From: an uncultured Rivularia sp.
GTDB taxonomy: Bacteria > Cyanobacteriota > Cyanobacteriia > Cyanobacteriales > Nostocaceae
Reading direction: 5' to 3'
Assembly (NCBI GenBank): GCA_963665115.1
Contig: OY762007.1
Span: forward strand, 6,240,001 to 6,304,000
DNA: 64,000 nt
The notes under the pieces are model-generated. The model was given only the letters and a program-made list of their open reading frames with translations. It ran no database searches and was not told where the DNA came from. The translations under genes and the position numbers were made by a program. Of the stretch, positions 2,597 to 52,207 are shown one piece after another. The first letter of the stretch is position 1; each line of letters opens with the position of its first letter.

Positions 2597-2611
2597 TGAG
2601 GAATTCGTGAG
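2597..2611 (-). promoter_or_regulatory. Regulon box 1 (CTCACGAATTCCTCA-N11-TAATCT), toward the gene at 2389
   Basis: Matches the recurrent motif and spacing. Confidence 0.75.
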
Positions 2612-2981
2612 CATACTTATTTGTGTGTAAATAATAAGTATAGTGATATTACTGCAAAAAATGTGAGTATTTTTATTTCAAAGTATTGCTATGCTAGACT
2701 TTGGGATGCCTGTTTTTTAAGATATATTCTTATAGTTGTGTTTTAGCTGTATTAAATAAAACTTTATAGTAATATTTTATAAAATGGGCTTTGATAAACC
2801 TTATTTATCTAGAAGCAAGGAAACAAAGCTTCGTGTCCGTTTGCTTCTTGTACAAGATTTGCGCTGAATATACAAGTAAAGGAAATTTCAGATATCGAAG
2901 GTTACGCAAAACTTAAATTTGTTCTATTGTAAAGATTAAAGATAAAAATGCTTTATTGAAATTACCCACCGCACTTGCACT

Positions 2982-5900
2982 ATGCAGCAGAACCAGCGAT
3001 TTGCACTGGAACAAGCGATAGAACGCAATCCTTTGATTGTCACCCCTGATACACCTTTATTTGAGGTGATTCAGCTAATGAGTCAGGGGTGGGTAAGAAG
3101 TTGTAATCTCGAACAAAATCATTTCTCTTCAGATGAAAATCAGGTGGTGTCAGCCCATAGCAGTTATTCCTTAGTAATGCAGGATTCGCAGGTGACTGGT
3201 ATTTTTACCGAGCGCGACATGATGCGGTTGCTTGCTGCTGGGAGAATACGACAGGAGACAACTATTGCAGAAGTGATGAGCCAGGAGATAGTGACGCTCA
3301 AAGCTGCGGAAGTTGAAGATGTTTTTACCGTTTTGAGTTTGACTTGCGATCGCAATATTCGTCATCTACCAATTGTTGATGAGCAAAACCAACTTCTGGG
3401 GATAATTACCCCCGAAGGAATGCGAAAAGCGCTTCATCCTACTGAGTGGCTGAGATTTCGCCGGGTTGCTGAAGTGATGAATACCCAAGTTCTTCATGCA
3501 CCTCCAACAATATCGGTGCTAGATGCAATCAAATTAATGGTTGAACATCATACTAGCTGTGTGGTGATTGTGCAAGGGAATAGGGCATTGGGCAATGGGC
3601 ATCAGGCATTGGGTATGGTGCAAGGGGCAAGGGGCAATGAAGGGACGGATATGAGTCCTTCCCAATCTTCTCCACTTATTCCTATTGGAATTCTTACCGA
3701 ACGCGACATAATTCAATTTCAGAAGTTGGAGTTAAATTTAGAAGGCACGCAGGTACAAAATGTCATGAGTTCGCCGCTATGTTTGGTAAATGCGGATGAG
3801 TCATTATGGACTGTACACCAGAAAATGCACCAGTATCGGGTACGACGGTTGGTTATCGCTGGTGAAGCAGGAGAATTACGGGGAATAGTTACGGAAACTA
3901 GCTTATTACAAGCTTTAGATCCGACTGAGATGTATGGGGTTTTGGATTTATTGCAGGAAAAAGTCGAACGCTTGGAAGTAGAAAGAAGTGAATTATCGCA
4001 AAGCTACACCAAGCAATCTCAACTTTATCAGCAAGTGCAGACAGCACTCGAAGAACGTAAGCAGATAGAAAAAGCGCTGCGAGAAGAAAGAAATTTAACA
4101 TCTGCGATTTTAGATGTAGCTGGTGCTTTAATTGTCGTTCTGGATAAACAAGGACAAATTATAAGCTTTAACCAAGCCTGTGAAAAAATTACTGGCTATA
4201 GCTTTGAAGAAGTTGAAAATAAGCAGGTATGGAATTTAATTGCTCACGAAGAAATAGAAACCACTACAAAAGTTTTTGAGCAACTGAAAAAAGGTGACTT
4301 TCCCAATCAAAATGAAAACCACTGGGTAGCAAAGGATGGAAGTCTTCGTTTAATTAGCTGGTCAAATACTTGTTTAATTGATGACGATGGTTCGGTAAAA
4401 TATATTATCGCAACTGGAATTGATATTACTGAGAAAAAGCAAGTAGAAGAAGACTTAAATCGTTTTTTCTCGCTTTCTCTTGATATGCTTTGTATAGCTG
4501 GGTTAGATGGTTATTTTAAACAAATAAATCCAGCTTTTCAACACACTTTAGGATATACGGAAGCAGAATTATTTGCACAACCCTTTTTAAGTTTTATTCA
4601 CCCCGATGATATAGCACCAACTTTAGCGGAAATGGATAAACTTTCCCAGGGAGTTAAAACAATTGCTTTTGAAAACCGCTATCGCTGCAAAGATGGCTCT
4701 TACAAGTGGTTGCAGTGGAATGCAACTCCTTACGAGCAACTACTTTATTCGGTAGCGCGAGATGTAACTGAGTATAAGCAAACGCGAGAAAAAATCAACG
4801 AGCAAGCTGCTTTACTAGATGTCGCTACCGATGCAATTTTGGTTCGGGATCTCGAAAATCAAATCTTATTTTGGAATCAAGGTGCAGAACGTTTATATGG
4901 CTTTACCTCAGCAGAAGCTTTGGACAAAAATACCAATGAATTACTTTTCCGCGATTCTTTAGCACAATTAGAAGAAATCTATCAAGTACTATTTAAGGAG
5001 GATTACTGGAAAGGGGAACTACATCAAGTTACTAAAGCTGGCAATGACATTGTTGTTTTTAGTACTTGGAACTTAGTACGCGACGAACAAGGAAATCCCA
5101 AATCAACATTAATAGTTAATACCGATATTACCGAGAAAAAGCAATTAGAAGCTCAATTTCTCCGCGCTCAACGTTTGGAAAGTATTGGTACATTATCCGG
5201 TGGAATTGCTCACGATTTAAACAATATTCTCACGCCGATTTTGGCGATTTCTCAGCTTCTCCCGCTTACACTTCCTTCTTCGGATGAACAAACAAAGCAT
5301 TTATTTGATGTACTTGAAACTAGTGCTAAACGAGGAGCAACTTTAGTTAAGCAGGTGTTATCTTTTGCGCGAGGTGTTCAAGGCGATCGCACTCCCCTAC
5401 AAGTTAAACATATCATCTCGGAGATAAAAGATTTTGCTCGCAACACTTTTCCTAAATCAATCGAAATTCAAGTCGGTTTGCCCGATGATTTACGGTTAAT
5501 TAGTGCCGATGCGACACAAATTCATCAGGTATTAATGAATCTTTGCGTTAATGCTCGCGATGCAATGTCAAACGGCGGTACGCTAAGTTTAAAAGCTGAA
5601 AACATCGATATCGATCAAAACTATGCCAAGATGAATCTTGATGCGAGCGTGGGGAATTATGTTGTAATTACAGTTGCAGATACGGGTACGGGTATTCCTC
5701 CAGAAACTTTGGAAAGGATTTTTGAACCATTTTTTACTACTAAAGAACAAGGTAAAGGTACTGGGCTAGGACTTTCAACCACAATTGGTATTATCAAAAG
5801 TCACGGTGGTTTTATCAATGTTTATAGCGAAGTTGGTGAAGGAACAAAATTTCAAGTTTATTTACCAGCAATCCAAACAGCAAAAATTGTACAAGTCTCT

Positions 5901-6293
5901 CAAGCAGAAATTCCCGAAGGAAAAGGAGAATTAATCCTTTTAGCAGATGACGAGATGAGTATTAGGGATATTACTAAAACATCTTTAGAAAATTACAATT
6001 ATCAAGTAATTACCGCTAGCGATGGAATTGAAGCAATCGCCCTTTATGCCCAGCATCGAAACGAAATCAGCGCTGTGTTAATAGATATGATGATGCCGGA
6101 AATGGATGGTGTAACCACTATCCGCACCCTGCAAAGAATGAATCCCCAAGTTAAGATAATTGCCGTCAGCGGATTAGCTACCAGCGATAAAGTAAGCGCA
6201 GCAATGAGTAGTGGTGCCAAATTATTTTTATCAAAACCTTACACTAGCGAAGAATTACTAAGAAAATTGCATCAAGTTCTCAATCTTGGATGA
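2982..6293 (+). CDS. Hybrid sensor histidine kinase (CBS pairs, three PAS, HisKA, HATPase, REC)
   Basis: GIFTERD CBS motifs, PAS DITE motifs, IAHDLNN H-box, GTGLGL G-box, receiver DMMMP. Confidence 0.92.
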
Positions 6294-6710
6294 TATAGGA
6301 ATTCGATTTATATAAAAAAACGTGATAGGTGTCGGGATAAAGCAAGCTCAATATATTTTTCAAAATAATTTGCTTCAAAACAATAACACCCAAGCATCTA
6401 CTTGCTCAGGGATTTCCTCTTTTTTGTTATCTTCATAGGGACGTACTAATCAATTGCTTCACAAATTAATAGTAACGTTGCCCCCTGACTCTCACAACGA
6501 GGAATTATAAGCGTTCGAGTTGGGTGTTGTTGTTAGTTTTCGAGACAGATTATGAAACAGTTTACTTACCTCTTCACTTGATTTAACCTGTAGTACCAGG
6601 CTATTTTATCTGCCAGGGAAGCTTCAATCAGCTTCATTTTCAATATAGCAATTATGAGCTAAAGATAAATTCTTTTGAAACTAATCTTTACCTTTAATTA
6701 AATTACTATA

Positions 6711-7926
6711 CTATCCGATTAATTCAGCTACTCGGATTGCAGATGTAATGGCACCTTCATGTAAACCATCTCCTAAGTAAGCGCCTGCATGATAGGTATG
6801 ATTTTCCCCGTTGGTATCAACTACTTGATCTCGGTATCGGAAAGATTCAACAGTATATAATGGTGTATCATGTTCCAAACTTTGAATAATTTTATCTAGA
6901 TTAATTAAAGATTCGAGATTAAACGCCAAGCTATATTTAACTTCAGATGAGACACCACACAACTGATTAAGATAAGCATTATATCCCCATCCCTTTGCCG
7001 TCTCGAAAAAATCAAACTCCGAAGGTTGTTTAATACCGTATCTATCGTACATCGAAGTATCGGCATGAATCAGCGTAACTATTTGGTTGTTCTCCCAACT
7101 ACCAAAGCGTCTGATTTCAGCTTCTGTAGGATCTAACAATAGCTTTAGTACTCTATCTGGTGGAGTCGCAAACACAACTTTATCAAATCGATAGGTTGCA
7201 CCATCTGATAGTTCAATTTTGACACCATCCGCAATTCTAGAGACATCCGCGACGCTGATGTTTAACAGAATTTCCCCTTTGAAACGCTGTAAAATCTTTT
7301 CAATATAGGAATATACTCCCCCCTTAATTCTGAACCAGTCGATAAAAATATAATCTCGCAGAGATAGAATCCCTAGTTTCCGCAGGAAAATCATCAATTA
7401 GTTCAAATTGCATTGAATAACTATACATCGCCAGCAGTTTTATCCAGGTATTTCTAACACATCGAGTCTTTAAAAAGTAAGATAAAGACCGATTATAGAC
7501 GGACGGAATTTGAGCAAAATGAGTTTTTAACCAAAAACCAGCCGAACGAGCGTATAAACCATCAAGCTTAAAAAATTCGATTAGTCGCTGTATTCGGGTG
7601 AAATTTTTGCGGATTGCCGTTGCAGAATGTATATGATGACCATTTTTGAAAAACATCGTAGAACCTAAATCAACAGGTTCTAAATCAACTTCTAACTCTT
7701 TCATCAAATTGAGAAAGTTGTAGAAATTACCGGGAAATTCCAGTACTCCACCTTCTAAAAATTCGTTACATTCACAGCTTTCAGGTTTAACATTTTTATT
7801 AAGAGTACGAATATGTCCTCCTAGAATAGGCTGCTTTTCAAACACTGTAACATGATGACCTTGTTTATCAAGAAGATAAGCCGTGACTAAACCGCTGGCT
7901 CCCCCGCCAATAATAGCTATTCTCAT
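6711..7926 (-). CDS. FAD-dependent oxidoreductase (amine oxidase-like), split by a +1 frameshift near 7378
   Basis: GGGASG dinucleotide motif, LGGH, C-terminal GLHEGA; the two ORFs join as FPAELGILSLRDY if one base is removed. Confidence 0.8.
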
Positions 7927-8003
7927 CACTCAACTCCTATATTGATTGCTTTTTGATAACTGTTCACTGCATGACGCTACCGCATCACGCTGCGCTAACG
8001 CTG

Positions 8004-9542: not shown

Positions 9543-9610
9543 AACTAGTTTTGTTAAATAACTATATTCATGCTCTGGTCGAGCATAAAATTTATTTTCT
9601 AAATTAAATT

Positions 9611-9625
9611 TGAGAAACTTGTGAG
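9611..9625 (-). promoter_or_regulatory. Regulon box 2 (CTCACAAGTTTCTCA), toward the oxidoreductase pair
   Basis: Consensus match; the only site without TA at +12 (GAAAAT instead). Confidence 0.75.
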
Positions 9626-9733: not shown

Positions 9734-9748
9734 CTCACAATTTCCTCA
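9734..9748 (+). promoter_or_regulatory. Regulon box 3 (CTCACAATTTCCTCA-N11-TAAGAT)
   Basis: Motif and spacing; divergent from box 2. Confidence 0.8.
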
Positions 9749-10018
9749 AATTTTAGATTTAAGATCAAAGAACAGCTAAAAAATTAGCTTACAAAAGTTT
9801 ACACTAGCAAGAAGTAAGATAGAAAGATTTCACAACAATAGAACAGATATCAAGGTAAAACTTTTTACGTTATTATGACCGTAAATACACCACAAGTCGA
9901 TTGTTGCTAACCTGTTAGCACAAACTGCTTTAAAAAAGATTTCCTGTTCCGCGCTCATTTAAAATCGTGTAGAAACTATCTATCTACCTCCTGGCTTGTG
10001 TTTTCGCTGGAGGTAACT

Positions 10019-10630
10019 ATGAATAACAAAAATGAACGTAAAACATCAATAAAATTTGTTGCAACTTTCTTAGCTACAGCAACATTAATGGCTGCTACGA
10101 TTGCACCTGCTTTGGCTGCACCAAAAGTCAGAATTGTTGATGACGTAGGTTACGGTGGTAGCGGTTGTCCTGACAGGTCAGCAAGCGTTACCGTTAGTCC
10201 CGATGGTCAAGAATTATCTATTCTGTTTGATGAATTCATTGCAGATGCAGCAAAACGCAAACATCGTCGTAAAAGCTGTAATCTATCAATTCCGATAAAA
10301 GTCCCTCAAGGATTTCAAATCTCCCTCTATGATGCAGACTATCGAGGTTATGTAGCTCCCTCAACTACTGCAAGACTGAGAGCAGAATATTTCTTTGCAG
10401 GTCAAAGAGGTCCGATTTTCAGCAGAATATTCAAAGGTGAAAGCGAGTATTTTGTTCGAGATCCATTAGAAACAGTTGCTAATGTGTGGTCGCGCTGTGG
10501 TGATAGTTTGAATATGCGGGTGAATGCAGCAATGTCTGCTCGCGGAAAAGGAATTGCAACGGTTGATTCTTTTGATCTGGCCCATCGTGGTTTGAAATAC
10601 CATATCAAATACCGTTCGTGTAATAAATAA
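10019..10630 (+). CDS. Secreted DUF4360-family protein
   Basis: Signal peptide, YGGSGCP, RKSCNL, DYRGY; GGAGG RBS. Confidence 0.85.
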   Translation: MNNKNERKTSIKFVATFLATATLMAATIAPALAAPKVRIVDDVGYGGSGCPDRSASVTVSPDGQELSILFDEFIADAAKRKHRRKSCNLSIPIKVPQGFQISLYDADYRGYVAPSTTARLRAEYFFAGQRGPIFSRIFKGESEYFVRDPLETVANVWSRCGDSLNMRVNAAMSARGKGIATVDSFDLAHRGLKYHIKYRSCNK

Positions 10631-13957: not shown

Positions 13958-14017
13958 CGTTATCTCCCATTTTTAAGCTGACTAATTAGCTCTAAATCTC
14001 AAGTTAAAAAAATAATG

Positions 14018-14032
14018 TGAGTAAATTGTGAG
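14018..14032 (-). promoter_or_regulatory. Regulon box 4 (CTCACAATTTACTCA-N11-TAACTT), toward the psbU-like gene
   Basis: Motif and spacing. Confidence 0.8.
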
Positions 14033-14073: not shown

Positions 14074-14088
14074 CTCACAAGAAACTCA
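14074..14088 (+). promoter_or_regulatory. Regulon box 5 (CTCACAAGAAACTCA-N11-TATTAA), toward GH65-pgmB
   Basis: Motif and spacing; back-to-back with box 4. Confidence 0.75.
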
Positions 14089-14188
14089 CAATTGTTTGGT
14101 ATTAAGAAAAAATCTATATTTAACTGTTTAACTGGCATTATCAAAATTAATTTGAATCTTATAAATACCAACAATAGCCTGAATACCA

Positions 14189-17232: not shown

Positions 17233-17247
17233 CTCACAGCTTCCTCA
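17233..17247 (+). promoter_or_regulatory. Regulon box 6 (CTCACAGCTTCCTCA-N11-TATTCT)
   Basis: Motif and spacing. Confidence 0.8.
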
Positions 17248-17397
17248 CAATTTATCTTTATTCTTAATATTGAAGATTAATAAACGCTTATAATACTTAA
17301 TTTTTCAGCGACATTACAAATTAAATTATCATTCACTGGTATGGAATTTACGAACAAAAAACTACTGTTGTACTAAATATTCAATAAGGAGTATAAG

Positions 17398-20746: not shown

Positions 20747-20845
20747 TTCAAACACCTCCTGACTTGAAAGTATCTGAATCAAGGTATTGCATAATTCAAG
20801 TATGAATTGAATTATGTAATCCTTGAAAATGTTATTTTTAAGTAA

Positions 20846-20983: not shown

Positions 20984-21095
20984 ATATACCTCCACAAAGA
21001 TATACTATTGTTCCGCAAACAAATATATAATAAGTCCTGTTTGAGAAAGCGTTCTACTTAGGGCTTATCTATATTTAAATATTAAGATAATAAAA

Positions 21096-21110
21096 TGAGA
21101 AACTTGTGAG
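21096..21110 (-). promoter_or_regulatory. Regulon box 7 (CTCACAAGTTTCTCA-N11-TAATAT)
   Basis: Consensus motif and spacing. Confidence 0.85.
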
Positions 21111-23361: not shown

Positions 23362-23408
23362 AATTTACACCCTCACGAAACCCTAATTGTCAGACTAAAG
23401 AGAAAATT

Positions 23409-23423
23409 TGAGAAACTTGTGAG
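23409..23423 (-). promoter_or_regulatory. Regulon box 8 (CTCACAAGTTTCTCA-N11-TAGTCT), toward the DUF2949-pfkA operon
   Basis: Consensus motif and spacing. Confidence 0.85.
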
Positions 23424-28327: not shown

Positions 28328-28429
28328 AAATTTGCTGTTACCTTTGGAAGTTGAAAATTAAACTTTTATTGGTTTTATTTGCGGGTTTAATCCTCCTAAT
28401 TGCTATATTTTGGTTATATATGAATAATT

Positions 28430-28444
28430 TGAGGAACTTGTGAG
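28430..28444 (-). promoter_or_regulatory. Regulon box 9 (CTCACAAGTTCCTCA-N11-TATAAC)
   Basis: Consensus motif and spacing. Confidence 0.85.
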
Positions 28445-30040: not shown

Positions 30041-30090
30041 TTCTACTATCTCCCAATACTTTTGCTCTTTTTATTTATAGAGAATAAATT

Positions 30091-30105
30091 TGAGAAACTT
30101 GTGAG
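30091..30105 (-). promoter_or_regulatory. Regulon box 10 (CTCACAAGTTTCTCA-N11-TATAAA), toward pyk
   Basis: Consensus motif and spacing. Confidence 0.88.
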
Positions 30106-32374: not shown

Positions 32375-32436
32375 AATTCACCTCCGTGGCATATAAAATG
32401 ATTTCTGAATTTATTTTTATTTATAGAAAATAAATT

Positions 32437-32451
32437 TGAGAAACTTGTGAG
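32437..32451 (-). promoter_or_regulatory. Regulon box 11 (CTCACAAGTTTCTCA-N11-TATAAA)
   Basis: Consensus motif and spacing. Confidence 0.88.
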
Positions 32452-32470: not shown

Positions 32471-32485
32471 CTCACAAGTTCCTCA
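32471..32485 (+). promoter_or_regulatory. Regulon box 12 (CTCACAAGTTCCTCA-N11-TACAAC), toward pflB
   Basis: Consensus motif; back-to-back with box 11. Confidence 0.85.
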
Positions 32486-32568
32486 TCTTTTTTATTTACA
32501 ACGGAATTGTAGAAGAATGCAGGAGTAAGTATAATTCGTAATTCGTAATTCGTAATTCGTAATTAGGT

Positions 32569-32698: not shown

Positions 32699-32880
32699 CA
32701 AGCGTCCGATTGAGGACGAGTTATAAACAACTTTTTTAATTAACCGTCCTCTTTTTGAATGCAGGAAGCCGCACATTTTGCTTTTCCAGAAACCCTGGGT
32801 ATCGTCGCAATGAGAAAATGTGCATCTGTATAAATTTGACTTATTACTCGGCAATTAAACACTTAGATACCAGAGTCAAA

Positions 32881-35110
32881 ATGATGGAACAATGGAATGG
32901 GTTTCAAACTGGCAAGTGGATGAAGGAAATCAATGTACGTGACTTTATCCAAAAAAACTATAATCCTTACACGGGAGACGATTCTTTTTTAACAGGTGCA
33001 ACCAAAAAAACTCAAACTTTGTGGAATCAGGTAAAAACTCTGATGGAAACAGAGCGGGAAAAAGAAATTTTAGATGTTGATACAGAAGTTGTTTCGACAA
33101 TTACTTCCCATCAACCGGGCTATATTAACCGTGAATTAGAGCAAATTGTCGGTTTACAAACCGATAAACCTCTCAAACGCGCTATTATGGCTTTTGGCGG
33201 TATTCGAGTCGTGAAATCTTCTTTATCAGCTTATGGGTACAAACTAAATCTACAGACAGAAGAGATTTTCACTAAATATCGCAAAAGCCATAACGACGGG
33301 GTTTTTGATGCTTATACCAGCGAAATGCGGTTAGCACGACACTCCGGTATTATCACGGGTTTGCCCGATGCTTATGGTAGAGGTAGAATCATTGGCGATT
33401 ATCGTCGAGTCGCTTTGTACGGTGTTGATAGGCTAATTGACGATAAAAAAGAGCAGCTCGAATCTTTAGAAGTAGATGCAATAGAATCCACTGTAATTCA
33501 ACTCCGGGAAGAAATAAACGAGCAAATAAAAGCTTTGTTCGAGCTTAAGGAAATGGCTGTTAGCTACGGTTTTAATCTTAGTCTTCCTGCTAGCAATGCT
33601 CAAGAAGCAGTACAGTGGCTTTACTTTGGTTATTTAGCAGCAGTCAAAGAACAAAATGGTGCTGCAATGTCTTTAGGAAGAATTTCAACTTTCTTGGATA
33701 TCTATTTTGAACGAGATTTGCAGCAAGGTAAGGTAACAGAAACACAGTTGCAAGAATTCATCGACCATTTTGTAATGAAATTGCGGATGGTGCGTTTCTT
33801 GCGAAACCCCAGAATACAACCAATTATTCTCCGGAGATCCCACTTGGGTAACAGAATGTATCGGTGGTATGGGTGAAGACGGTAGAACTCTTGTGACCAA
33901 AAATAGCTTCCGTATCCTCAATACTCTGTATAATTTGGGAGCAGCACCAGAGCCGAATTTAACTGTACTATGGTCGGAAAGATTGCCAAAAGCTTTCAAG
34001 GAATTTTGTACAAATGTTTCTATCCATACCAGTTCAATTCAGTATGAAAACGATGACTTGATGCGTCCGTATTGGGGTGATGATTACGGAATTGCTTGCT
34101 GTGTATCTGCAATGCGAATTGGTAAGCAAATGCAATTCTTTGGCGCACGGGTTAACCTTGCCAAATGTTTGCTATATGCTATCAATGGCGGTAAAGATGA
34201 AAAATCCGGCGAGCAAATCGCACCAGCTTTTGCACCAATTACCTCAGAATATCTAGACTACGACGAGGTAATCCAAAGATTTGACTTGATGGTGGATTGG
34301 TTAGCAAAAACCTACATCAATATGCTTAACGTCATCCACTATATGCATGATAAATACTGCTACGAACGCATTGAAATGGCGTTACACGACCGCGATGTGT
34401 TCCGGACAATGGCTTGCGGTATGGCTGGTTTATCAGTAGTTGCGGATGCGTTAGCGGCTATTAAATACGCCAAAGTCAAAGTATTGCGCGACGAAACAGG
34501 ACTTGCTGTTGATTATAAAATAGAAGGCGATTTTCCTAAATATGGTAACAACGATGACCGCGCCGATGATATTGCTGCGGGCTTAATTACCGATTTTATG
34601 AACAAACTGCGCCAGCATAAAACCTATCGCAATGCTTTACCAACTCAGTCAATATTAACCATTACCTCAAACGTCGTTTACGGTAAGAAAACAGGTAGTA
34701 CCCCAGACGGGAGAAAAGCTGGAGAACCCTTTGCACCGGGAGCGAACCCCATGCACGGAAGAGATACGAAAGGGGCGATCGCCTCTCTTGCGTCGGTAGC
34801 CAAACTTCCTTACGAATACTCCCAAGACGGTATTTCCAATACTTTCTCTATTGTGCCTAGCGCACTGGGTAAAATTCCAGAAGACAGAATTAACAACTTA
34901 GTGGGAATGCTCGACGGATATTTCCACGATGGAGGACATCATATCAACGTCAATGTTCTAAATCGAGAAATGTTATTAGATGCAATGGAACATCCCGAAG
35001 AATATCCGCAGTTAACTATCAGGGTTTCTGGTTATGCAGTCAATTTCATTAAATTAACCCGAGAACAGCAGCTTGACGTTGTGAAACGGACATTCCACGA
35101 ACGGATGTAA
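32881..35110 (+). CDS. pflB: Pyruvate formate-lyase, with a +1 frameshift at ~33805
   Basis: [30 protein letters not shown] glycyl loop; frames join as FLRTPEYN. Confidence 0.93.
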
Positions 35111-35192
35111 ACGCACAAATTATGTAGAGACGTAGCAGTGCTACGTCTCCCTAATCTAGGCATTCACCCAATTATTAATAATTAAAATTATC

Positions 35193-36856: not shown

Positions 36857-37008
36857 ACAACCCTCCCGATATAAACTAAGTTAATTCTTAGCTATATCAA
36901 TTCAAAGATTTATGTTGATGTAGGATTTATCTACATTTTCTAGATTCGATAGAAAGGATTATTTGACAACTTCTACTTTCTATCTACTTTTAAGATAACG
37001 AAAAAACT

Positions 37009-37023
37009 TGAAGAACTCGTGAG
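37009..37023 (-). promoter_or_regulatory. Regulon box 13 (CTCACGAGTTCTTCA-N11-TATCTT)
   Basis: Motif variant and spacing. Confidence 0.7.
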
Positions 37024-37103: not shown

Positions 37104-37118
37104 CTCACAACTTCCTCA
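37104..37118 (+). promoter_or_regulatory. Regulon box 14 (CTCACAACTTCCTCA-N11-TATAAC), no downstream CDS
   Basis: Consensus motif and spacing. Confidence 0.8.
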
Positions 37119-37290
37119 CATTTTTTGCCTATAACTCAAAATGAAAAAGCTGTGTTTCCGACTTCCACATTAGAGAGGTTCAAAGTGGGATGAGTGTTTA
37201 AAAGTTTAGTACCATACTTACTAAAATAAATATATGTAGAGACGTAGCACTGCTACGTCTTTATAATTTAGTCATTGAAACCACTAATCC

Positions 37291-37509: not shown

Positions 37510-37581
37510 AATTCACTTCCTCTGTATTTCAAAACCTTTATAGTAAACTGATTTCTTTAATTTCATCCTAAAAATTAAATG

Positions 37582-37596
37582 TGAAGAACTTGTGGA
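37582..37596 (-). promoter_or_regulatory. Regulon box 15 (TCCACAAGTTCTTCA-N11-TAGGAT)
   Basis: Degenerate motif, same spacing. Confidence 0.6.
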
Positions 37597-37684: not shown

Positions 37685-37699
37685 TTCACAACTTCCTCA
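37685..37699 (+). promoter_or_regulatory. Regulon box 16 (TTCACAACTTCCTCA-N11-TATAAC)
   Basis: Motif and spacing. Confidence 0.75.
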
Positions 37700-37908
37700 A
37701 ACTTGTAATTTATAACTATAAGTATAAAGATGCTGAGTTAAATTTGATTCAGTACTCTGCTGTAAATAGCAGGTTGAACTTGAAATTATACTTAATAGCA
37801 AAGTCATAGATTCACAATAACATTTGTCAAATTCTCAGTCTATATTTGCTTACAGATACATCCACTATATAAAAATCTGTAGAAGTGATATTGAAAGGAA
37901 GGTGTATT

Positions 37909-39126: not shown

Positions 39127-39142
39127 TAACCCTTGTAAATGA

Positions 39143-39878: not shown

Positions 39879-40041
39879 AATTTGTTTCCTCTTAATATAT
39901 TTACGAGGGTTTATACTGCGATACAGTTGAGTCATATATGAGTTAATCTAATATATTAAATATTTTAATTAACTCATTCTAGATAAAACATTTAAACCCT
40001 CTAACTAATGTTCTCTATACTTTTAATTTAAACGAAGATTG

Positions 40042-40056
40042 TGAGGAAGTTGTGAG
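40042..40056 (-). promoter_or_regulatory. Regulon box 17 (CTCACAACTTCCTCA-N11-TAAATT)
   Basis: Consensus motif and spacing. Confidence 0.82.
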
Positions 40057-40511: not shown

Positions 40512-40526
40512 CTCACAAAATCCTCA
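40512..40526 (+). promoter_or_regulatory. Regulon box 18 (CTCACAAAATCCTCA-N11-TATTTT), toward the P-type ATPase
   Basis: Motif and spacing. Confidence 0.75.
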
Positions 40527-40604
40527 ATATTTTTGAGTATTTTTAAAATATATATACTTATCATTCTTAAATCCAGTTATTCATTGAGAATATAGTAATG
40601 GACT

Positions 40605-44684: not shown

Positions 44685-45164
44685 TTATTTGACAACTAAC
44701 ACCGAACAACAAGCGTGGTGAATAACATAACTGCTGACACTACCTAGCAAAACTTCTGCTATCGCACTATGTCCTCTACTACCTAATACAATTAAATCAG
44801 CACCCCAAGATTGAGCAAACTCGCAGATTTTCTTCCCTGGCTCTCCAAGCTCATAGGTATATGATGCGGGAATTTTATGCATTCGTGCTTGCTGAGTGTA
44901 ATATTCCGACCATTCACTGACTTTTTGGATTTCTTGTTTTAATTCCTGTTGATAGTTTTTGTGTAAATTTCCATATATATTGATATCACCAATAGTACCA
45001 ATACCACCGATAGATGATACTTCTCGAACCATCATATTGCTATTTATACAATGCAATAATTTGATTTCGTTATCTTTTTCTTTTACTAAATCTAACGCTG
45101 TTTGAAAGACTTTTCCTGTTTGGTTAGATTTATCTAGAGCAACTAAAATCTTGCGATTAATCAT
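44685..45164 (-). CDS. Universal stress protein
   Basis: KILVALD, ADLIVLGSRG, LLGSVS. Confidence 0.92.
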   Translation of the reverse strand: MINRKILVALDKSNQTGKVFQTALDLVKEKDNEIKLLHCINSNMMVREVSSIGGIGTIGDINIYGNLHKNYQQELKQEIQKVSEWSEYYTQQARMHKIPASYTYELGEPGKKICEFAQSWGADLIVLGSRGHSAIAEVLLGSVSSYVIHHACCSVLVVK

Positions 45165-45214
45165 GATTTCTCCTCACAGTAAATATTCAATACTTTTACT
45201 TTATAGATATAATT

Positions 45215-45229
45215 TGAAGAAAATGTGAG
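45215..45229 (-). promoter_or_regulatory. Regulon box 19 (CTCACATTTTCTTCA-N11-TAAAGT), toward the USP gene
   Basis: Motif variant and spacing. Confidence 0.7.
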
Positions 45230-45248
45230 GATACAAATTCAAAGCTTC

Positions 45249-45263
45249 CTCACAAGTTCCTCA
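45249..45263 (+). promoter_or_regulatory. Regulon box 20 (CTCACAAGTTCCTCA-N11-TATAAA), toward pflA-adhE
   Basis: Consensus motif; back-to-back with box 19. Confidence 0.88.
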
Positions 45264-45334
45264 AATTATTCCCGTATAAATCAAAGTGAAGCGAATAAAA
45301 AGCTTCAATCTCTTGCGTGCTATGGGTAATAGCT

Positions 45335-46087
45335 ATGTTACATCCAGTATCTGAAGTTGCTACATTCGGTTACATCCACTCAGTTGAAACTTGTGGTACG
45401 GTGGATGGTCCTGGTATTCGTTTTATAATTTTTACTACAGGTTGTCCCCTACGTTGTTTGTATTGCAGTAATCCCGACTGTCGCTATCTGGAACATGGAA
45501 AACAGGTAACAGTTGATGAATTGATTGCTGAAATTAAAAAATATACTTCTTACATGAAAGCATCGGGTGGAGGTGTAACAATTAGCGGTGGTGAACCTTT
45601 ATTCCAACCAGAATTTGTTAGAGAAATTTTTCGACGCTGTAAAGAATTAGGAATACATACGGCTTTAGATACATCTGGATTTTGTAATTTAGAAACCGCA
45701 AAATCTGTATTAGAATTTGTAGATTTAGTATTGCTTGATATTAAATCATTTGAACCAGCTACTTACACCAAAGTCACGGGAGTTGATATCAAACCAACGC
45801 TAATTCTTGCTAAATACTTGAGTGATATTAATAAGCCAGCCTGGATTCGATTTGTATTGGTACCTGACTTAACAGATGATACGGACAATATAACCGGATT
45901 AGCCGATTTTATTTCTACCCTTAAAAATATTCAAAGAGTTGAAGTATTACCATTTCATAAAATGGGTGAATACAAATGGGAAGAACTAGGTTACGAATAC
46001 AAATTAAAAGAAACTCCAAGCCCCACCTCGGAACAGGTAGAAAAAGTATTAAATATCTTCCGCAGCAAAGGTATTTTCACTCTTTAA
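45335..46087 (+). CDS. pflA: Pyruvate formate-lyase activating enzyme (radical SAM)
   Basis: GTVDGPGIR, CPLRCLYC, SGGEP, LPFHKMG. Confidence 0.95.
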   Translation: MLHPVSEVATFGYIHSVETCGTVDGPGIRFIIFTTGCPLRCLYCSNPDCRYLEHGKQVTVDELIAEIKKYTSYMKASGGGVTISGGEPLFQPEFVREIFRRCKELGIHTALDTSGFCNLETAKSVLEFVDLVLLDIKSFEPATYTKVTGVDIKPTLILAKYLSDINKPAWIRFVLVPDLTDDTDNITGLADFISTLKNIQRVEVLPFHKMGEYKWEELGYEYKLKETPSPTSEQVEKVLNIFRSKGIFTL

Positions 46088-46131
46088 TTAAAACTTTGCC
46101 AAACTCTGCATTTCAATAAAGGAGTAAAATT

Positions 46132-48837
46132 ATGCAAGTTACCAATATTCAAGAATTAGAGTTACTAGTAGAAAACGTCAAAGCAGCACAAGAAAAATAC
46201 GCTACATATTCTCAAGAGAAAGTTGATTTTATTTTTAAACACGCAGCATTAGCAGCCAATAATCAAAGAATACCTTTAGCAAAATTGGCTGTTTCTGAAA
46301 CAGAAATGGGTATTATAGAAGATAAAGTAATTAAAAACCACTTTGCATCGGAATATATTTATAACAAATATAAGCATGAAAAAACCTGCGGTCTTATCGA
46401 AGAAGATAGAAGTTTTGGTATTCAAAAAATAGCCGAACCAGTAGGAATTATTGCTGGAATTGTTCCCGTAACTAACCCTACATCTACAACTATTTTTAAA
46501 GCATTGATAGCTCTCAAAACCCGCAATGGAATTATTCTTTCTCCCCATCCTAAAGCTAAAAAATGCACCATAGAAGCAGTAAAAATTATCTTAGAAGCAG
46601 CAGTTTCTGCTGGTGCGCCAGAAAATATTATCGGTTGGATTGACGAACCAACGGTAGAATTATCCCAAGCATTAATGCAGCATTCCGATATCAAACTAAT
46701 TTTAGCAACTGGCGGACCGGGAATGGTACATGCTGCTTATTCTTCGGGACATCCATCATTAGGTGTAGGAGCAGGAAATACTCCTGCGGTAATTGACAAA
46801 TCGGCTGATATTCAAACTGCTGTCAGTTCGATTTTGTTGAGTAAAACTTTTGATAATGGAATGATTTGTGCTTCGGAACAATCTGTAATTATTGTTGATG
46901 ATATTTACGAACAAGTTAAACAGGAATTTATGTGTCGGGGTGCATATTTTCTCAACGATACAGAAAAAAGCCAACTGGGTAATGTAATTTTAAAGGAAGG
47001 AAGATTAAATCCAGCAATTGTCGGACAGTCGGTAGAAAAGATAGCTCAATTAGCAGGATTTAAACTCAAAAGTGAAGTTTCTGGATGTGGAAAAGATACT
47101 TATTGTCCGCTACCAAGTAGCTATAAAACTTTAATTGCTGAAGTAGAAGACATTGGTAAATCAGAACCTTTTGCTTATGAAAAATTATCGCCAATTTTAG
47201 CAATGTATCGAGCAACAAACTTTCATGAAGCAGTTGCTAAAGCCGAAAGCTTGATTGAATTTGGCGGTCCCGGACATACTGCCGTATTGTATACCAATCC
47301 AGCTAATTACGATGATATTACTTATTTCGAGAATGCAATTAAAACGGGAAGAGTTTTGATAAATACACCATCTTCTCAAGGTGCAATCGGTGATTTATAT
47401 AATTTCAAATTAGACCCATCTCTAACTTTGGGTTGTGGAACTTGGGGTGGTAATACAATATCCGATAACGTCGCACCCCATCACCTACTAAATATTAAAA
47501 CAGTATCCCAGCGTCGGGAAAATATGCTGTGGTTCCGCGTTCCCCCAAAAATTTATTTTAAATCTGGTTGTTTACCTGTAGCTTTAGGAGATTTAACTGG
47601 TAAAAAACGAGCATTTATTGTTACGGATAAACCATTGTTTGATTTAGGAATTGTCGATAGTGTCACCAAGGTTTTAGAGGAAATCGGCATCAAATACGAT
47701 ATATTCCACGAGGTTGAACCAGACCCCAATTTATCTAATGTTAAACAGGGTTTAGCATTATTAAACAATTATCAACCAGATGTAATTATTGCTATTGGTG
47801 GTGGTTCACCGATGGATGCAGCTAAAGTTATGTGGTTGATGTACGAACATCCCGAGGTGGAATTTGCTGGTTTAGCAATGCGATTTATGGATATTCGTAA
47901 GCGAGTTTATGAACTACCATCCTTGGGACAAAAAGCAATGTTAGTCGCTATTCCTACGACTTCCGGTACTGGTTCGGAGGTAACGCCATTTGCAGTTGTC
48001 ACCGACGAAAAAGCAGGAGTTAAGTATCCTTTAGCAGATTATTCCCTAACACCAAATATGGCAATTGTAGACCCAGAATTGGTTTTAAATATGCCAACAA
48101 AGTTAACTGCATACGGTGGCATTGATGCTTTAACTCATGCACTAGAATCTTATGTTTCGGTAATGGCTACTGAGTTTACCGATGGATTAGCATTACAGGC
48201 AATAGATTTACTATTTAAATACTTGCCCAGAGCCTATAAAAATGGCAAAAATGACCCCGAAGCGCGGGAAAAAGTTCATTATGCAGCAACAATTGCAGGA
48301 ATGGCATTTGCTAATGCTTTCTTAGGAGTTTGTCATTCAATGGCTCATAAATTAGGAGCAACTTTTCACGTACCCCACGGCTTAGCAAATGCGCTGATGA
48401 TTTCCCATGTAATTCGTTACAATGCTACCGATATTCCTTTCAAACAAGCTATTTTTCCACAGTACAAATATCCCCACGCCAAACAGCGTTATGGTGAAAT
48501 TACAGATTTCTTGGGATTGGGTGGAAATACCCTTGATGAAAAAATTGAAAAATTAGTGGAAGCGGTAGAAAATCTCAAGCATGAAGTTGATATTCCTTTA
48601 ACGATTAAAGAAACATTGGGAGATGATGAACAAGCTTTTTATAGTAGTTTAGAAACAATGGCAGAACAAGCATTTGATGACCAATGTACCGGAGCAAATC
48701 CCCGCTATCCGTTAATTAACGATTTGAAAGAATTGTACGTTTTAGCTTATCGCGGTTGTCGTACTGATGCGGCTTTTTATCATGTAGATGAATCGGATAA
48801 TTTGCAGTTGGAAGAAGTGAGGATGGGTAATGGGTAA
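46132..48837 (+). CDS. adhE: Bifunctional acetaldehyde-CoA/alcohol dehydrogenase
   Basis: DNGMICASEQ, GCGTWG, GGGSPMD, CHSMAHK. Confidence 0.96.
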   Translation: MQVTNIQELELLVENVKAAQEKYATYSQEKVDFIFKHAALAANNQRIPLAKLAVSETEMGIIEDKVIKNHFASEYIYNKYKHEKTCGLIEEDRSFGIQKIAEPVGIIAGIVPVTNPTSTTIFKALIALKTRNGIILSPHPKAKKCTIEAVKIILEAAVSAGAPENIIGWIDEPTVELSQALMQHSDIKLILATGGPGMVHAAYSSGHPSLGVGAGNTPAVIDKSADIQTAVSSILLSKTFDNGMICASEQSVIIVDDIYEQVKQEFMCRGAYFLNDTEKSQLGNVILKEGRLNPAIVGQSVEKIAQLAGFKLKSEVSGCGKDTYCPLPSSYKTLIAEVEDIGKSEPFAYEKLSPILAMYRATNFHEAVAKAESLIEFGGPGHTAVLYTNPANYDDITYFENAIKTGRVLINTPSSQGAIGDLYNFKLDPSLTLGCGTWGGNTISDNVAPHHLLNIKTVSQRRENMLWFRVPPKIYFKSGCLPVALGDLTGKKRAFIVTDKPLFDLGIVDSVTKVLEEIGIKYDIFHEVEPDPNLSNVKQGLALLNNYQPDVIIAIGGGSPMDAAKVMWLMYEHPEVEFAGLAMRFMDIRKRVYELPSLGQKAMLVAIPTTSGTGSEVTPFAVVTDEKAGVKYPLADYSLTPNMAIVDPELVLNMPTKLTAYGGIDALTHALESYVSVMATEFTDGLALQAIDLLFKYLPRAYKNGKNDPEAREKVHYAATIAGMAFANAFLGVCHSMAHKLGATFHVPHGLANALMISHVIRYNATDIPFKQAIFPQYKYPHAKQRYGEITDFLGLGGNTLDEKIEKLVEAVENLKHEVDIPLTIKETLGDDEQAFYSSLETMAEQAFDDQCTGANPRYPLINDLKELYVLAYRGCRTDAAFYHVDESDNLQLEEVRMGNG

Positions 48838-48985
48838 TTGGTAATTGGTAATTGGTAATTGGTAATTGGTAATTGGTAGTTGGTAATTGGTAATGGGTAA
48901 TAGGTGATTGGTAATTAGTGATTATCAACTCTTAACTCCTAACTCTTAACTCCTAACTCCTAACTCCTAACTCCTAATTACTCCC
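48824..48985. repeat. STRR tracts (GGTAATT)n and (CTCCTAA)n
   Basis: Long tandem heptamer runs overlapping the adhE stop. Confidence 0.85.
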
Positions 48986-49015
48986 TACTTCCTATTTTCA
49001 AAACAGGAGTGATTT

Positions 49016-51766
49016 ATGCAACAAACAATTAAGATAGCCTCAGACCGTGCTTATGATATTCTTCGTTCCCAACATCACCCCTTAGATGCTATTTTTACAC
49101 CTAAAAACGTTGCGGTTATCGGTGCATCTGGGAAAGAAGGTAGCGTAGGACGTACTCTGTTGTGGAATCTCGTTAGCCATCCTTTTGGGGGAACGGTTTT
49201 TCCTGTTAATCCCAAACACAATAGCATTTTGGGTATCAAAGCCTACCCAAATATTGCCGCAGTTCCAGAAGTTATTGACTTAGCAATTATTGCTACTCCC
49301 GCTACAACTGTACCTAGTGTTATTGCTGAATGCGTAGATGCGGGAGTTAAAGGTGCAATTGTGGTTTCTGCTGGGTTTCGGGAAACGGGAACTACAGGAT
49401 TAGAACTAGAGCAGCAGGTGTTAGAACAAGTTCGTCGCTCTCAAATGCGGTTAATTGGTCCTAACTGTTTGGGAATTATTAATCCCCATATTGGCTTAAA
49501 TGCGAGCTTTGCTAGTGGTATGGCACTTCCTGGTAAAGTCGGATTTATCAGTCAGAGTGGGGCATTGTGTACGGCTATTTTAGATTGGAGTTTCCGCGAA
49601 AATGTCGGATTTAGTGCTTTTATTTCCATCGGTTCCATGCTCGATGTTGATTGGGGAGATTTAATTTATTACCTCGGCGACGACCCCCATACGGAAAGTA
49701 TTGTGATTTACATGGAATCTATCGGTAATGCTCGTTCTTTTCTTTCAGCTGCGCGGGAAGTTGCTTTAACCAAACCGATTATAGTCATCAAAGCCGGACG
49801 TACTGAAATTGCAGCCAAAGCCGCAACATCCCATACAGGTGCCTTAGCGGGAAGCGACGCGGTATTTGATGCAGCCTTAAGACGCTGTGGGGTATTGCGA
49901 GTTAATCGCATTTCTGAATTATTCGATATGTCAGAGGTGTTGTCAAAACAACCCCGTCCCAAAGGTAAACGAATGACAATTATTACTAATGCTGGGGGAC
50001 CTGGGGTTTTAGCTACAGATGCGTTAATTTCTGGAGGGGGAGAACTGGCTGAGTTAACCGTTGAAACTCGCGATGCTTTGGATAAATTATTACCTGCAAA
50101 TGCTAGCTGCAATAACCCAATTGATTTATTAGGAGATGCAGATTATAAGCGTTACGAAAATGCTTTAAAAATTGTCAGTCAAGATAAAAATACTGATGCA
50201 ATTTTGGTAATTTTAACACCGCAGGCAATGACAAACCCTACCAAAATAGCAGAAGTTTTAACAGCTTGTGCCAAAAGCAATAAACCAATTTTAGCAAGTT
50301 GGATGGGTAACTCAGAAATCCAAGCTGGGGCAGAAATTCTCAATCAAGCCGCAATTTCCACGTTTCCCTATCCCGATACTGCTGCCCGAATTTTTAATTA
50401 TATGTGGCGCTATAGTTATAATTTGCGTAGTTTATACGAAACTCCAGTATTAGCTAATCCAGAAGTAGATTTTTTCCATTGTAATTTAGTTGAGAAAATC
50501 ATTGAGAAGGCACGTCGCGAAACAAGATATTTATTAACAGAAATTGAATCAAAAAAAATACTTGCAGCTTATGGAATTCCAACTGTAGAAACATATCTCG
50601 CAACAACAGTAGAATCCGCTATTCAAATAGCAGATAAAATTGGTTATCCGGTAGTAATGAAAGTTTATTCATATACCATTACCCATAAATCGGATGTGAA
50701 TGGAGTGCATTTAAATTTATGTTGCGCCGATGCTGTTAGAGAAGCATATCAAGCTATTCAAACATCGGTGACACAGAAAGTTGGTAGCAGCCATTTTGCT
50801 GGGGTGACAATTCAGCCAATGGTGAATTTAAAAAACAGCTATGAATTGATATTGGGTAGTAGTATAGATGCTCAATTTGGACAAGTTTTACTATTCGGTA
50901 CGGGAGGACAACTAGTTGAGGTATTTCAAGATAGAGCATTGGGATTACCTCCACTTAATACTACCTTGGCTCGGCGAATGATGGAACAAACTCAAATTTA
51001 CAAAGCATTAAAAGGAGTTAGAGGAAGAACATCTATTTCATTAGATAAATTAGAGCAGCTTTTAGTTCGTTTTAGTCAGTTAGTTGTAGAACAACCTGGG
51101 ATTAAGGAAATTGATATTAATCCGCTTTTAGCAAAACCAGGTATTGATGATTCATTGATAGCATTAGATGGAAGAATTGTACTGCACAATTTAGATGCGA
51201 ACATCGAAAAATTACCAAAACCTGCAATTCGTCCCTATCCAATCCAATATATCTCAACTTGGAAAATGCAAAACGGGATGGAAATTACTATACGTCCGAT
51301 TCGTCCCGAAGATGAGCCGTTAATGATTCAATTTCACCATGAATTATCACAGCAAAGCGTTTATTTTCGCTACTTTCATCTGATTAAAATTAGCCGACGT
51401 ATTGCTCACGAACGTTTAACAAGATTGTGCTTTATAGATTATGACCGAGAAATGGCTTTAGTCGCCGATTATTATAATCCTCAAACTCAAAAAAATGAAA
51501 TTTTAGCTGTTGCGAGATTAAGTAAACTACACCAAACAAATCAGGCTGAGTTTGCTTTGATAGTAGCAGATAAATATCAGTGTCAAGGAATAGGAAGCGA
51601 ATTACTAAAACGATTGTTGCAAATTGGGAAAGATGAGAAATTGAGCGAAATCAATGCAGAAATTTTGTTAGAAAATCTGGGGATGCAGCGAGTTTGTGAA
51701 AAACTAGGGTTTATTATTCAGCCTACAGATGATTGTTCTGTGGTTAAAGCTGCTATTGCTTTGTAA
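49016..51766 (+). CDS. Bifunctional acetate-CoA ligase (ADP-forming type)/GNAT acetyltransferase
   Basis: [26 protein letters not shown]-grasp, C-terminal GNAT QCQGIG. Confidence 0.9.
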
Positions 51767-51805
51767 AAAAGTATCGTGTCATTATGCTTATCAGAATAAA
51801 ACTTC

Positions 51806-51820
51806 CTCACAAGATTCTCA
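51806..51820 (+). promoter_or_regulatory. Regulon box 21 (CTCACAAGATTCTCA-N11-TAGATT)
   Basis: Motif and spacing. Confidence 0.82.
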
Positions 51821-51883
51821 AACTTATTTTTTAGATTAATAATATACATTCCATATAAAGCATTTACATTGGAGGTAGCAAAG

Positions 51884-52003
51884 ATGGAATACTTTACACT
51901 AATACCATTTACAACAGATATTACATATCTAATTGTCAAACTCGCAGTACTGCTTGCGGTTCTATTAGTTTGGATGATAGTTATGACACATCCCGCTTAT
52001 TAA
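51884..52003 (+). CDS. Unannotated 39-aa single-TM protein (MEYFTLIPFTTDITYLIVKLAVLLAVLLVWMIVMTHPAY)
   Basis: GGAGGT RBS, directly behind box 21; homologous to 13298-13408. Confidence 0.78.
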   Translation: MEYFTLIPFTTDITYLIVKLAVLLAVLLVWMIVMTHPAY

Positions 52004-52192
52004 ATCTTCATGAATGTTGCAGCATTAATTTTGACGTGAGAAGCATCTCTAAATCATCTTTGAGAAACACAAATCAAACCAGATTGCTAGAAATAAAACG
52101 AAAAATTTGCTTGATTTATAAAGGGATAGGGAGAACTAATTCAATAATCCCTATTTTTATTTTCACTACATGTAGCTGTACCCTAAATTCTC

Positions 52193-52207
52193 CTCACAAG
52201 TTTCTCA
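52193..52207 (+). promoter_or_regulatory. Regulon box 22 (CTCACAAGTTTCTCA-N11-TACAAC)
   Basis: Consensus motif and spacing. Confidence 0.85.

Follow-up and report, generated by a model that had tools for sequence, protein, structure and literature searches.

A clustered direct-repeat promoter box and a candidate RcaC/RfpB-type regulator in a fermentation and stress gene island of an uncultured Rivularia sp.

What reads the short repeated element that precedes so many genes in one stretch of a cyanobacterial chromosome, and to which signal might it answer? The stretch, called the window here, comprises 64,000 nucleotides of contig OY762007.1 from an uncultured Rivularia sp. (G000:C1:6,240,001-6,304,000 in our coordinates; other contig positions below refer to the same contig). 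An initial annotation, made from the letters alone, had described 22 intergenic copies of a box with two CTCA half-sites and a hexamer starting with TA at a fixed distance, and had proposed that a single activator encoded outside the window co-induces the genes behind them. The element is real, oriented and rigidly spaced, and a response regulator encoded at the edge of the same gene island is the candidate for reading it.

All 22 reported positions are occupied by a box, 10 on the plus and 12 on the minus strand (for the latter, the position reported had been the left end). The half-sites do lie 11 bp apart: 18 boxes contain an exact CTCA-N7-CTCA and the remaining four have TTCA or TCCA in one half. 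The strict pattern occurs 20 times in the window, against 1.5 expected and a maximum of 6 in 100 first-order Markov simulations, and of these 20 matches 18 are boxes, while the other two, at 38399 and 39942, are not. The period is specific, in that a spacer of 7 gives 20 matches in the window and each other spacer from 3 to 13 gives 0-4. TA follows 11 nt past the second CTCA in 21 of the 22 boxes, the exception being the box at 9611 (GAAAAT), while the intergenic TA background is 10%. The boxes had been called intergenic, which held for 21 of them: these lie outside open reading frames (ORFs) of at least 100 aa, even though 78% of the window is coding. The other box falls inside a 107-aa ORF that has no Pfam or NCBIfam match. 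As first reported, the window contains no strong copy past 52.3 kb.

A scoring matrix was built from the 22 box cores with the -10 information excluded. Applied to the genome outside the window, it returned 16 strong sites, 13 of them with TA at the same offset, and 47 weak sites, 37 of which are coding and only 8 of which have TA. A further 80 loci were retrieved by the protein sequence of the candidate regulator, so that these held-out loci were chosen by protein and not by box; they contain 113 distinct sites, 110 with TA at +11. Ten further boxes of this genome lie upstream of the window (contig positions 6,210,372-6,239,016) and four at three satellite places, and TA stands at +11 in all 14. 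The island occupies ~6.207-6.292 Mb (about 85 kb), holds 32 boxes and begins ~33 kb before the window.

Conservation extends further than had been stated, with a T 4 nt past the second CTCA in 35/35 sites and a partly conserved A-rich tract plus T/A beyond the hexamer. When the first C of CTCACA is numbered 0, the consensus from -2 to +18 reads t C C T C A C A A g T T c C T C A a a t T, followed by a T-rich spacer, TA at +26/27, T at +31 in ~60%, an A-tract from +33 to +35 and T/A at +37/38. The repeat can be described as a putative 22-bp tandem site, CCTCACA-N4-CCTCA(A/C)A-TT, over the inferred -35 region. If +26 to +31 is read as the -10 element, transcription would start near +38, as the initial annotation predicted, and the repeat would cover about -40 to -20. 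Two other layouts were rejected: a third half-site, as the position of TA does not fit the 11-bp period, and a -10 element shifted 6 nt downstream (prompted by the A-tract), since TA at +26/27 is kept in 97-99% of sites against 34-81%. An Rfam search of the window gave no match.

This layout had been attributed to the PhoB/OmpR activator architecture, and the pho box of Escherichia coli pstS indeed has an identical TCA-N11-TATAAC spacing. PhoB recruits RNA polymerase to promoters without a -35 element. Both systems combine a 22-bp tandem repeat over the -35 region with an OmpR-type winged helix-turn-helix (wHTH); they differ in the half-site (TGTCA in the pho box, CCTCA here), and PhoB is a two-domain protein with a phosphate signal. 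Overlap with the inferred -35 region would also suit a repressor site that blocks this region, or an upstream element of an alternative sigma factor, whose selectivity the partly conserved A-rich tract after the hexamer might reflect. We regard either as very improbable: a hexamer resembling TTGACA is missing at 17 nt, the box keeps a rigid orientation and 11-nt spacing (110/113), which repressors do not need, and the geometry is that of the pho box, with a two-fold direct repeat that tracks a wHTH protein.

That wHTH protein is the single OmpR-type candidate of the island. It lies ~25 kb upstream and thus outside the window, where the activator had been expected, and its distribution follows that of the box in 201 genomes of the class. 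The 1,317-aa regulator (contig positions 6,210,890-6,214,843, minus strand) is encoded at the left edge of the island, with a small single-domain receiver directly after it (6,210,449-6,210,880, minus strand), and its domains run Rec-wHTH-Hpt-Rec-Rec-PAS-GAF-PAS-HisKA-HATPase. The Asp or His phospho-residues are kept in the N-terminal and third receivers, the Hpt and the HisKA domain; the second receiver is degenerate. The genome encodes 15 OmpR-type wHTH domains, one of them in the island, and a split copy is found at a satellite box site. The nearest named relatives of the regulator are Rivularia/Calothrix records. Orthologs (31 proteins scanned for domains among 283 listed) keep the Rec-wHTH-Hpt-Rec core, with the PAS kinase fused or next in line, and some end in GGDEF. 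The NCBIfam RppA label was given no weight: the regulator scores 252.9 against a cut-off of 250, but this cut-off is not diagnostic because six paralogs outside or at the edge of the regulator clade, and a scanned ortholog, also pass.

Box and regulator co-occur. The recognition-helix pattern is present in 44 of the 201 genomes, and at least five boxes were found in 26 of these 44 compared to 1 of the 157 helix-negative genomes; this sole exception has variant boxes only, with T replacing C at one half-site. When labels were shuffled within eight families (108 genomes), none of 100,000 shuffles reached the observed 21, although kin inside families are still not independent. A box lies within 10 kb in 66 of the 80 regulator-centred loci. 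From these sequence comparisons, binding of the box by this regulator appears very likely.

Alternatively, the box could be bound by some other factor, such as a CRP-family protein, LexA, CyAbrB, RpaA/RpaB or another OmpR paralog, with the RcaC-like gene a mere passenger of the island. We consider this improbable, although the half-site contains TCACA, the half-site of CRP, and a Crp/Fnr protein is also encoded on plasmid pREB4 of Acaryochloris marina, which carries a similar island. CRP-family sites are palindromes of the form TGTGA-N6-TCACA, and TGTGA stands six bases before TCACA in 0/113 sites, so that a CRP-family site was rejected. The hox promoters of Nostoc 7120 and Synechocystis are targets of LexA and CyAbrB (PMC3091678, PMC11368403, PMC13421787), but the LexA sites quoted there are palindromes, unlike the box. 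Moreover, 156 of the 157 helix-negative genomes have fewer than five boxes, which universal regulators would not explain; in Nostocales, boxes are scattered over the chromosome yet still track the regulator; and paralogs with a different helix adjoin a variant box.

The half-sites of the RpaB HLR1, SphR, CopR, ManR and NrsR boxes presumably differ from the one found here. The initial annotation had likewise called the box unlike those of RpaB HLR1, SphR, CopR and NtcA. It is not the L-box proper of RcaC, but it is a variant of that element, which the initial annotation missed. RcaC binds the L-box as the last member of the RcaE-RcaF-RcaC relay of type III chromatic acclimation (PMC8256508, PMC5737509). 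Both regulators combine Rec-wHTH-Hpt-Rec with a small receiver partner, and both sites are 7-N4-7 direct repeats with an 11-bp period and a common CACA core. The half-site is CCTCACA here and TTGCACA in the L-box, the latter being the consensus that we assumed in our search. That form of the L-box was found before cpcB in 6/8 regions read, near RcaC-like genes, and the L-boxes seen lack TA at the same offset; this genome contains no exact L-box. The wHTH of RcaC is 52-55% identical and falls in a separate clade. Where the RcaC system has a cyanobacteriochrome, the present one has a haem-type PAS kinase that is fused to the regulator, and its targets are fermentation and stress genes as opposed to phycobiliprotein genes, with no cpc or cpe genes behind the boxes read. 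No bilin photosensor was assigned to the PAS-GAF-PAS input module with its haem-type PAS, a check that did not extend to the bilin-binding Cys of the GAF domain. Identity with the L-box/RcaC pair was rejected on half-site, clade, input and targets.

In a quick IQ-TREE tree of 73 Rec-wHTH rows, 40 rows form a single clade (SH-aLRT 99), which excludes both the genome's own RfpB and three RcaC-like proteins encoded next to L-boxes at cpcB; the RcaC-like and regulator groups form separate clades, with SH-aLRT values of 99 and 100. The RfpA-RfpC-RfpB system (PMC5737509) shares the gene order (regulator, kinase, small receiver, as in rfpB-rfpA-rfpC) and a large clustered target set, and its wHTH is 65% identical. 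It differs in its phytochrome input, and the genome's own rfpB lies elsewhere, has another recognition helix and falls outside the regulator clade. Identity with RfpB was rejected, as rfpB is a separate gene at 1,239,399 within the far-red photoacclimation cluster (contig positions 1,231,499-1,243,759), which contains psbD, apcD, apcE, apcB, psbA and rfpB-rfpA-rfpC.

The last PAS domain, next to the kinase core, suggests what the regulator may sense. FixL or DosP accounts for 13 of its 14 PDB sequence matches, and both are the best Foldseek matches of its alignment-based model (pLDDT 80.5), which was used since the single-sequence fold was poor (pLDDT 50.6). A FixL/DosP-type PAS occurs in 75/80 regulator loci, four of the five misses being short contigs. 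The proximal haem His is present in 73 of these 75, including this genome, and Arg occupies the distal position (FixL Arg220) in 65. This PAS is therefore predicted from sequence and model to be a haem gas sensor. It resembles FixL-FixJ and E. coli DosP in setting such a PAS, with its proximal His, beside a kinase core, and the targets Hsp20, Usp, CBS proteins, nitroreductase, pfk, P-type ATPase and an AAA_33 kinase presumably resemble those of the mycobacterial DosS/DosR hypoxia regulon. Unlike FixLJ and DosR, with their NarL-type protein on a palindrome, the output here is an RcaC-type OmpR regulator on a direct repeat; the relay has four steps, Ser stands at the FixL Arg220 position, and O2 control of the kinase is a prediction. 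In two genomes (L058:11078-13093, L064:6653-8659), the kinase that follows the regulator has an ethylene-receptor N-terminal domain besides the haem-type PAS.

In cyanobacteria, fermentation takes place at night and in mats. We propose that two wHTH domains of the regulator at the island edge would occupy the 11-bp repeat of the box in head-to-tail order and that the regulator, like PhoB, would bring RNA polymerase to promoters without a -35 element and activate them. Phosphate would reach its N-terminal receiver from the PAS-controlled kinase by way of the small receiver and then the Hpt domain, after the RcaE-RcaF-RcaC pattern. About 30 fermentation and stress promoters would be switched on when the predicted haem PAS senses a change in gas or redox state, and the regulon would ready cells for dark or anoxic fermentation by way of sugar-phosphate release, pfk/ppsA/pyk, PFL or PFOR, AdhE and acetate ligase. 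Hox where present, N-ATPase, Usp and Hsp20 would be further outputs. Judged from the promoter layout, activation with a start ~24 nt past the second CTCA is likely; by analogy, the relay from HisKA through the small receiver and Hpt to the N-terminal receiver is probable. We slightly favour haem-bound O2 or redox state as the main input, ranking it first because the haem residues are conserved, with carbon or energy status second. For the whole mechanism including the haem signal, we estimate a probability of roughly 0.6.

The box is not confined to this island. The strict pattern occurs in 24/24 other genomes of the genus and 29/34 of the family (reversed-pattern controls, 0-2), and across the class it is patchy, with a match in 91/201 genomes and at least five in 27/201. 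The regulon had been described as clustered, which is so here; in other Nostocales the box is widespread and not island-bound. Scattered boxes in five named Nostocales genomes stand before ppsA, nifJ, ptox, hoxU, usp, a hydrogenase protease gene, pfk, pflA and pflB (52/63 matches covered, a few first-gene assignments being spurious ORFs). Other Nostocales loci (L179, L194, L198, L202, L162) also have it before genes for protoglobin, KaiC-like ATPases, a second EF-G and a radical-SAM protein. In one genome (G088, L056:860-5290), the regulator operon adjoins genes that look hemN-like and acsF-like by sequence and is oriented away from usp-hoxEFU-hoxY-CBS/CP12-hoxH. Plasmid pREB4 of A. marina has hox/hyp genes and a regulator homolog in its similar island, with 22 sites scoring at least 13, 15 of them with TA (150 kb of 227 kb covered). 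It has no haem-type PAS, and the sole annotated kinase in the 150 kb covered is a CBS-PAS-GAF kinase like the one at 2982-6293 of the window; its regulator must therefore take another input.

Several observations weigh against the proposed mechanism. No box points at the regulator gene in this genome, and 18/44 helix-positive genomes have fewer than five strict boxes, although 13 of these 18 have Asp instead of Glu before the helix and may represent another paralog. The co-occurrence may also fit a different factor that accompanies the regulator. For many box-led genes there is no link to fermentation (DUF4360, the peptidoglycan-binding protein, psbU), and the PAS of this particular genome has Ser where FixL has Arg220. 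Published expression data add to this. Of the first genes behind a box on pREB4 (n = 11), 9 were down, not up, under N2, compared to 9/49 other genes, and 7 were down under high O2, compared to 7/49 (PMC5295598, Table S3, which lists differentially expressed genes only; 60 pREB4 genes covered, AM1_D0102 onward). hoxE, third in a box-led run, was up (log2 +1.97). As far as these data reach, they suggest co-regulation of the box genes and not their induction by low O2. In Nostoc PCC 7120, a CO2 step-down in air changed ppsA by -107, hox by -74, ptox by -65 and nifJ by -42 fold within 1 h, the four strongest falls in Table 2 of that study (PMC7699953), a collapse that O2 sensing alone does not predict.

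These falls would suit the same box and activator with carbon or energy status as the dominant input, whether CO2 supply, adenylate charge via a CBS-domain kinase, or a metabolite via the GAF or first PAS domain, in a carbon-surplus programme that stocks fermentation enzymes. Both gas-flushed treatments lowered the A. marina box-led genes, and the gene types that collapsed in Nostoc 7120 are box-led in the five named Nostocales genomes. hoxH is also down in flv1A and flv3A mutants (bioRxiv 10.1101/2021.12.15.472848). A CBS-PAS kinase is encoded in the island (CBS-CBS-PAS-PAS-PAS-HisKA-HATPase-Rec; window 2982-6293, plus strand), at a satellite site and on pREB4; it is a candidate second input and, judging by its CBS family, a candidate for adenylate sensing. 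We nevertheless hold carbon or energy status to be an unlikely main input. The haem-type PAS His is found in 73/75 loci, whereas only 2/80 have a CBS-kinase match at most 10 kb from the regulator. The Nostoc step-down involved pelleting and washing, so handling confounds the result (PMC7699953), and its link to the box is by gene type through the promoters of relatives, PCC 7120 not being among the 80 loci. Bicarbonate had been added in the A. marina study, whose main text and Table S3 conflict for psbU and the plasmid ATPase genes: AM1_D0138 psbU is given as -0.13/+1.37 in the text and Table 2 and as -1.17/+0.21 in Table S3, and the ATPase 'increased slightly' while atpD is at -2.15 (PMC5295598). 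The Rockhopper 'transcription starts' in the same table, 51 and 56 nt after two boxes and 93 nt after another, are too coarse to place the start.

Seen as a whole, the system described here may work like a pho-box regulon, be built like Rca/Rfp and sense like FixL. Described regulators of hox and nifJ include CyAbrB1/2, LexA, SigE, Rre34 and RpaA, with ChlR for low-O2 tetrapyrrole genes (PMC11368403, PMC13421787, PMC3091678); their targets overlap with the box regulon (hox, nifJ), and the box is not among their sites as described in the accessible text. A 2026 review and a 2024 study of hox control list CyAbrB, LexA, SigE, Rre34 and RpaA, and RcaC is unmentioned in the review. A calcium study found hox and nifJ clustering together (PMC4915528). 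Searches with six exact 14-nt forms of the box returned only human-cell papers and no cyanobacterial one, and topic searches of the literature turned up no work on this regulator; neither kind of search extended to subscription papers, figures, bioRxiv supplements, RegPrecise or CollecTF. What is new here is the 32-box island with its regulator, the held-out and within-family tests, the clade assignment, and the published data that question a low-oxygen label. We consider it an evenly balanced proposition that this is an undescribed master regulon of fermentation in many cyanobacteria (7/8 sampled family genomes and scattered lineages elsewhere), a counterpart of FixLJ/DosR made from a chromatic-acclimation relay by a swap of photoreceptor for haem gas sensor and three base changes in the L-box, which travels as a mobile island (pREB4; the 85-kb island) and accounts for the joint regulation of hox, nifJ, ppsA, ptox and pfl in strains of the Nostoc type.

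CyAbrB, LexA, SigE and RpaA, as described for hox and nifJ, are global or indirect regulators, and the box adds a candidate regulator, a precise putative site, a predicted start position and a target list; the named candidate, site and targets are testable in Nostoc/Anabaena. If the proposal is true, oxygen-producing bacteria would have a master switch for fermentation, the Rca/Rfp light relays would have a sister relay for gas or carbon status, and a tight switch would be at hand for hydrogen and fermentation engineering. The natural series CCTCACA, TTGCACA and TTTCACA, with different helices, could yield a recognition code for wHTH domains. In several loci (L068, L069, L070, L073; genome G037), paralogs with RAH or KAH instead of RTH in the recognition helix adjoin variant boxes, TTCACA..TTTTCA or TTCCC..TTTTCA, also with TA at +11. 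Such pairs point to a possible recognition code and possible further undescribed regulons.

Box targets across the island include genes for Hsp20, Usp proteins, ppsA, nitroreductase, N-ATPase, psbU, a GH65/beta-PGM fusion, pfk and pyk, as well as CBS and CBS-CP12 proteins, pflB, pflA, adhE, acyl-CoA ligase/acetyltransferase and P-type ATPase; no second copy of pfk, pflB or adhE was found elsewhere in the genome. Within the window, all boxes were said to point at an adjacent gene except box 14, and this is the case. From the left, box 1 (2580..2611, minus strand, TAATCT) points at a 391-aa ORF (1214-2389). Boxes 2 and 3 follow at 9594..9625 (minus, the sole box without TA, GAAAAT) and 9734..9765 (plus, TAAGAT), for a CrtI-like FAD oxidoreductase (8004-9542) and a DUF4360 gene (9998-10630), respectively. 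Box 4 (14001..14032, minus, TAACTT) points at a second psbU copy (13559-13957) and box 5 (14074..14105, plus, TATTAA) at the GH65 phosphorylase/beta-phosphoglucomutase fusion (14189-17068). A 97-aa ORF (17398-17691) lies behind box 6 (17233..17264, plus, TATTCT), and a 122-aa ORF (20414-20782) behind box 7 (21079..21110, minus, TAATAT).

Central carbon genes follow on the minus strand. Box 8 (23392..23423, TAGTCT) points at DUF2949 - phosphofructokinase (22025-23152) - DUF6920, box 9 (28413..28444, TATAAC) at a membrane protein and CBS-CP12 (27005-27631), box 10 (30074..30105, TATAAA) at pyruvate kinase (28469-30040) and box 11 (32420..32451, TATAAA) at a CBS protein (31841-32374). Box 12 (32471..32502, plus, TACAAC) leads pyruvate formate-lyase pflB (32755..35110, plus), which is two ORFs in the assembly. 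A small beta-barrel protein (36344-36856) lies behind box 13 (36992..37023, minus, TATCTT). Box 14 (37104..37135, plus, TATAAC) is an orphan promoter because its gene of ~313 aa is missing in this genome; an ORF of 303-352 aa stands behind the equivalent box in 6/8 relative loci examined.

Further right, the targets are DUF4327 (37291-37509) for box 15 (37565..37596, minus, TAGGAT), a 413-aa ORF (37885-39126) for box 16 (37685..37716, plus, TATAAC), a peptidoglycan-binding protein (39345-39935) for box 17 (40025..40056, minus, TAAATT), a P-type cation ATPase (40605-43367) for box 18 (40512..40543, plus, TATTTT) and a universal stress protein (44685-45164) for box 19 (45198..45229, minus, TAAAGT). 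Box 20 (45249..45280, plus, TATAAA) heads a plus-strand run (45317..51766) of pflA (45317-46087), adhE (46132-48837) and an ADP-forming acyl-CoA ligase/GNAT acetyltransferase fusion (49016-51766). Box 21 (51806..51837, plus, TAGATT) precedes an unannotated hydrophobic ORF of 39 aa (51884..52003, plus) with a GGAGG ribosome-binding site, found together with the box in relatives and present in 6/26 other genomes of the genus. Behind box 22 (52193..52224, plus, TACAAC) comes a DevA-like ABC ATPase ORF (52470-53048), which begins at the Walker A motif and is therefore probably a remnant.

The split of pflB is probably an assembly error and the gene intact, as an extra base at 33804 is missing from 2/3 DNA runs and 4/4 mat RNA runs. 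Insertions of 1-2 bases at window positions 26419, 31830 and 33804 are all absent from 2/3 DNA runs that otherwise match exactly and are therefore probably assembly errors; two of the three split the M28 peptidase gene and pflB. Other split genes are those for an amine oxidase (6711-7929), an antiporter, Lon and an upstream CBS-kinase fragment. Mat metatranscriptome contigs (Logan, related strains) cover pflB, pflA-adhE and the acyl-CoA ligase, but give no start or strand information and were not used as evidence.

Upstream of the window, a complete N-ATPase (atp2) operon (contig positions 6,224,259-6,234,849) has a cation/proton antiporter gene inside and atpG displaced downstream, with boxes before the operon and beside atpG; pREB4 carries the same operon with the antiporter. 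The head of the island is partially duplicated at 7,439,383-7,444,638 and 8,423,314-8,425,625. One set consists of usp, a zinc-ribbon-like ORF, a split Rec/wHTH copy with the same helix and a CBS-PAS kinase, the other of hsp20, a receiver fragment, a 93%-identical ppsA fragment and usp, and both retain their boxes. The flanks of the island (contig positions 6,180,000-6,206,000 and window 53342-56326) contain BREX-like and plasmid-like genes, transposase pieces and IS630, and HIP1 density in the island is 1.7 per 10 kb compared to 3.0 genome-wide, while GC is not different. The flanking genes and the HIP1 density suggest a mobile origin. Short intergenic repeats at window positions 37224-37265, 35120-35148 and 48927-48996 are present in very many copies throughout the genome and in relatives.

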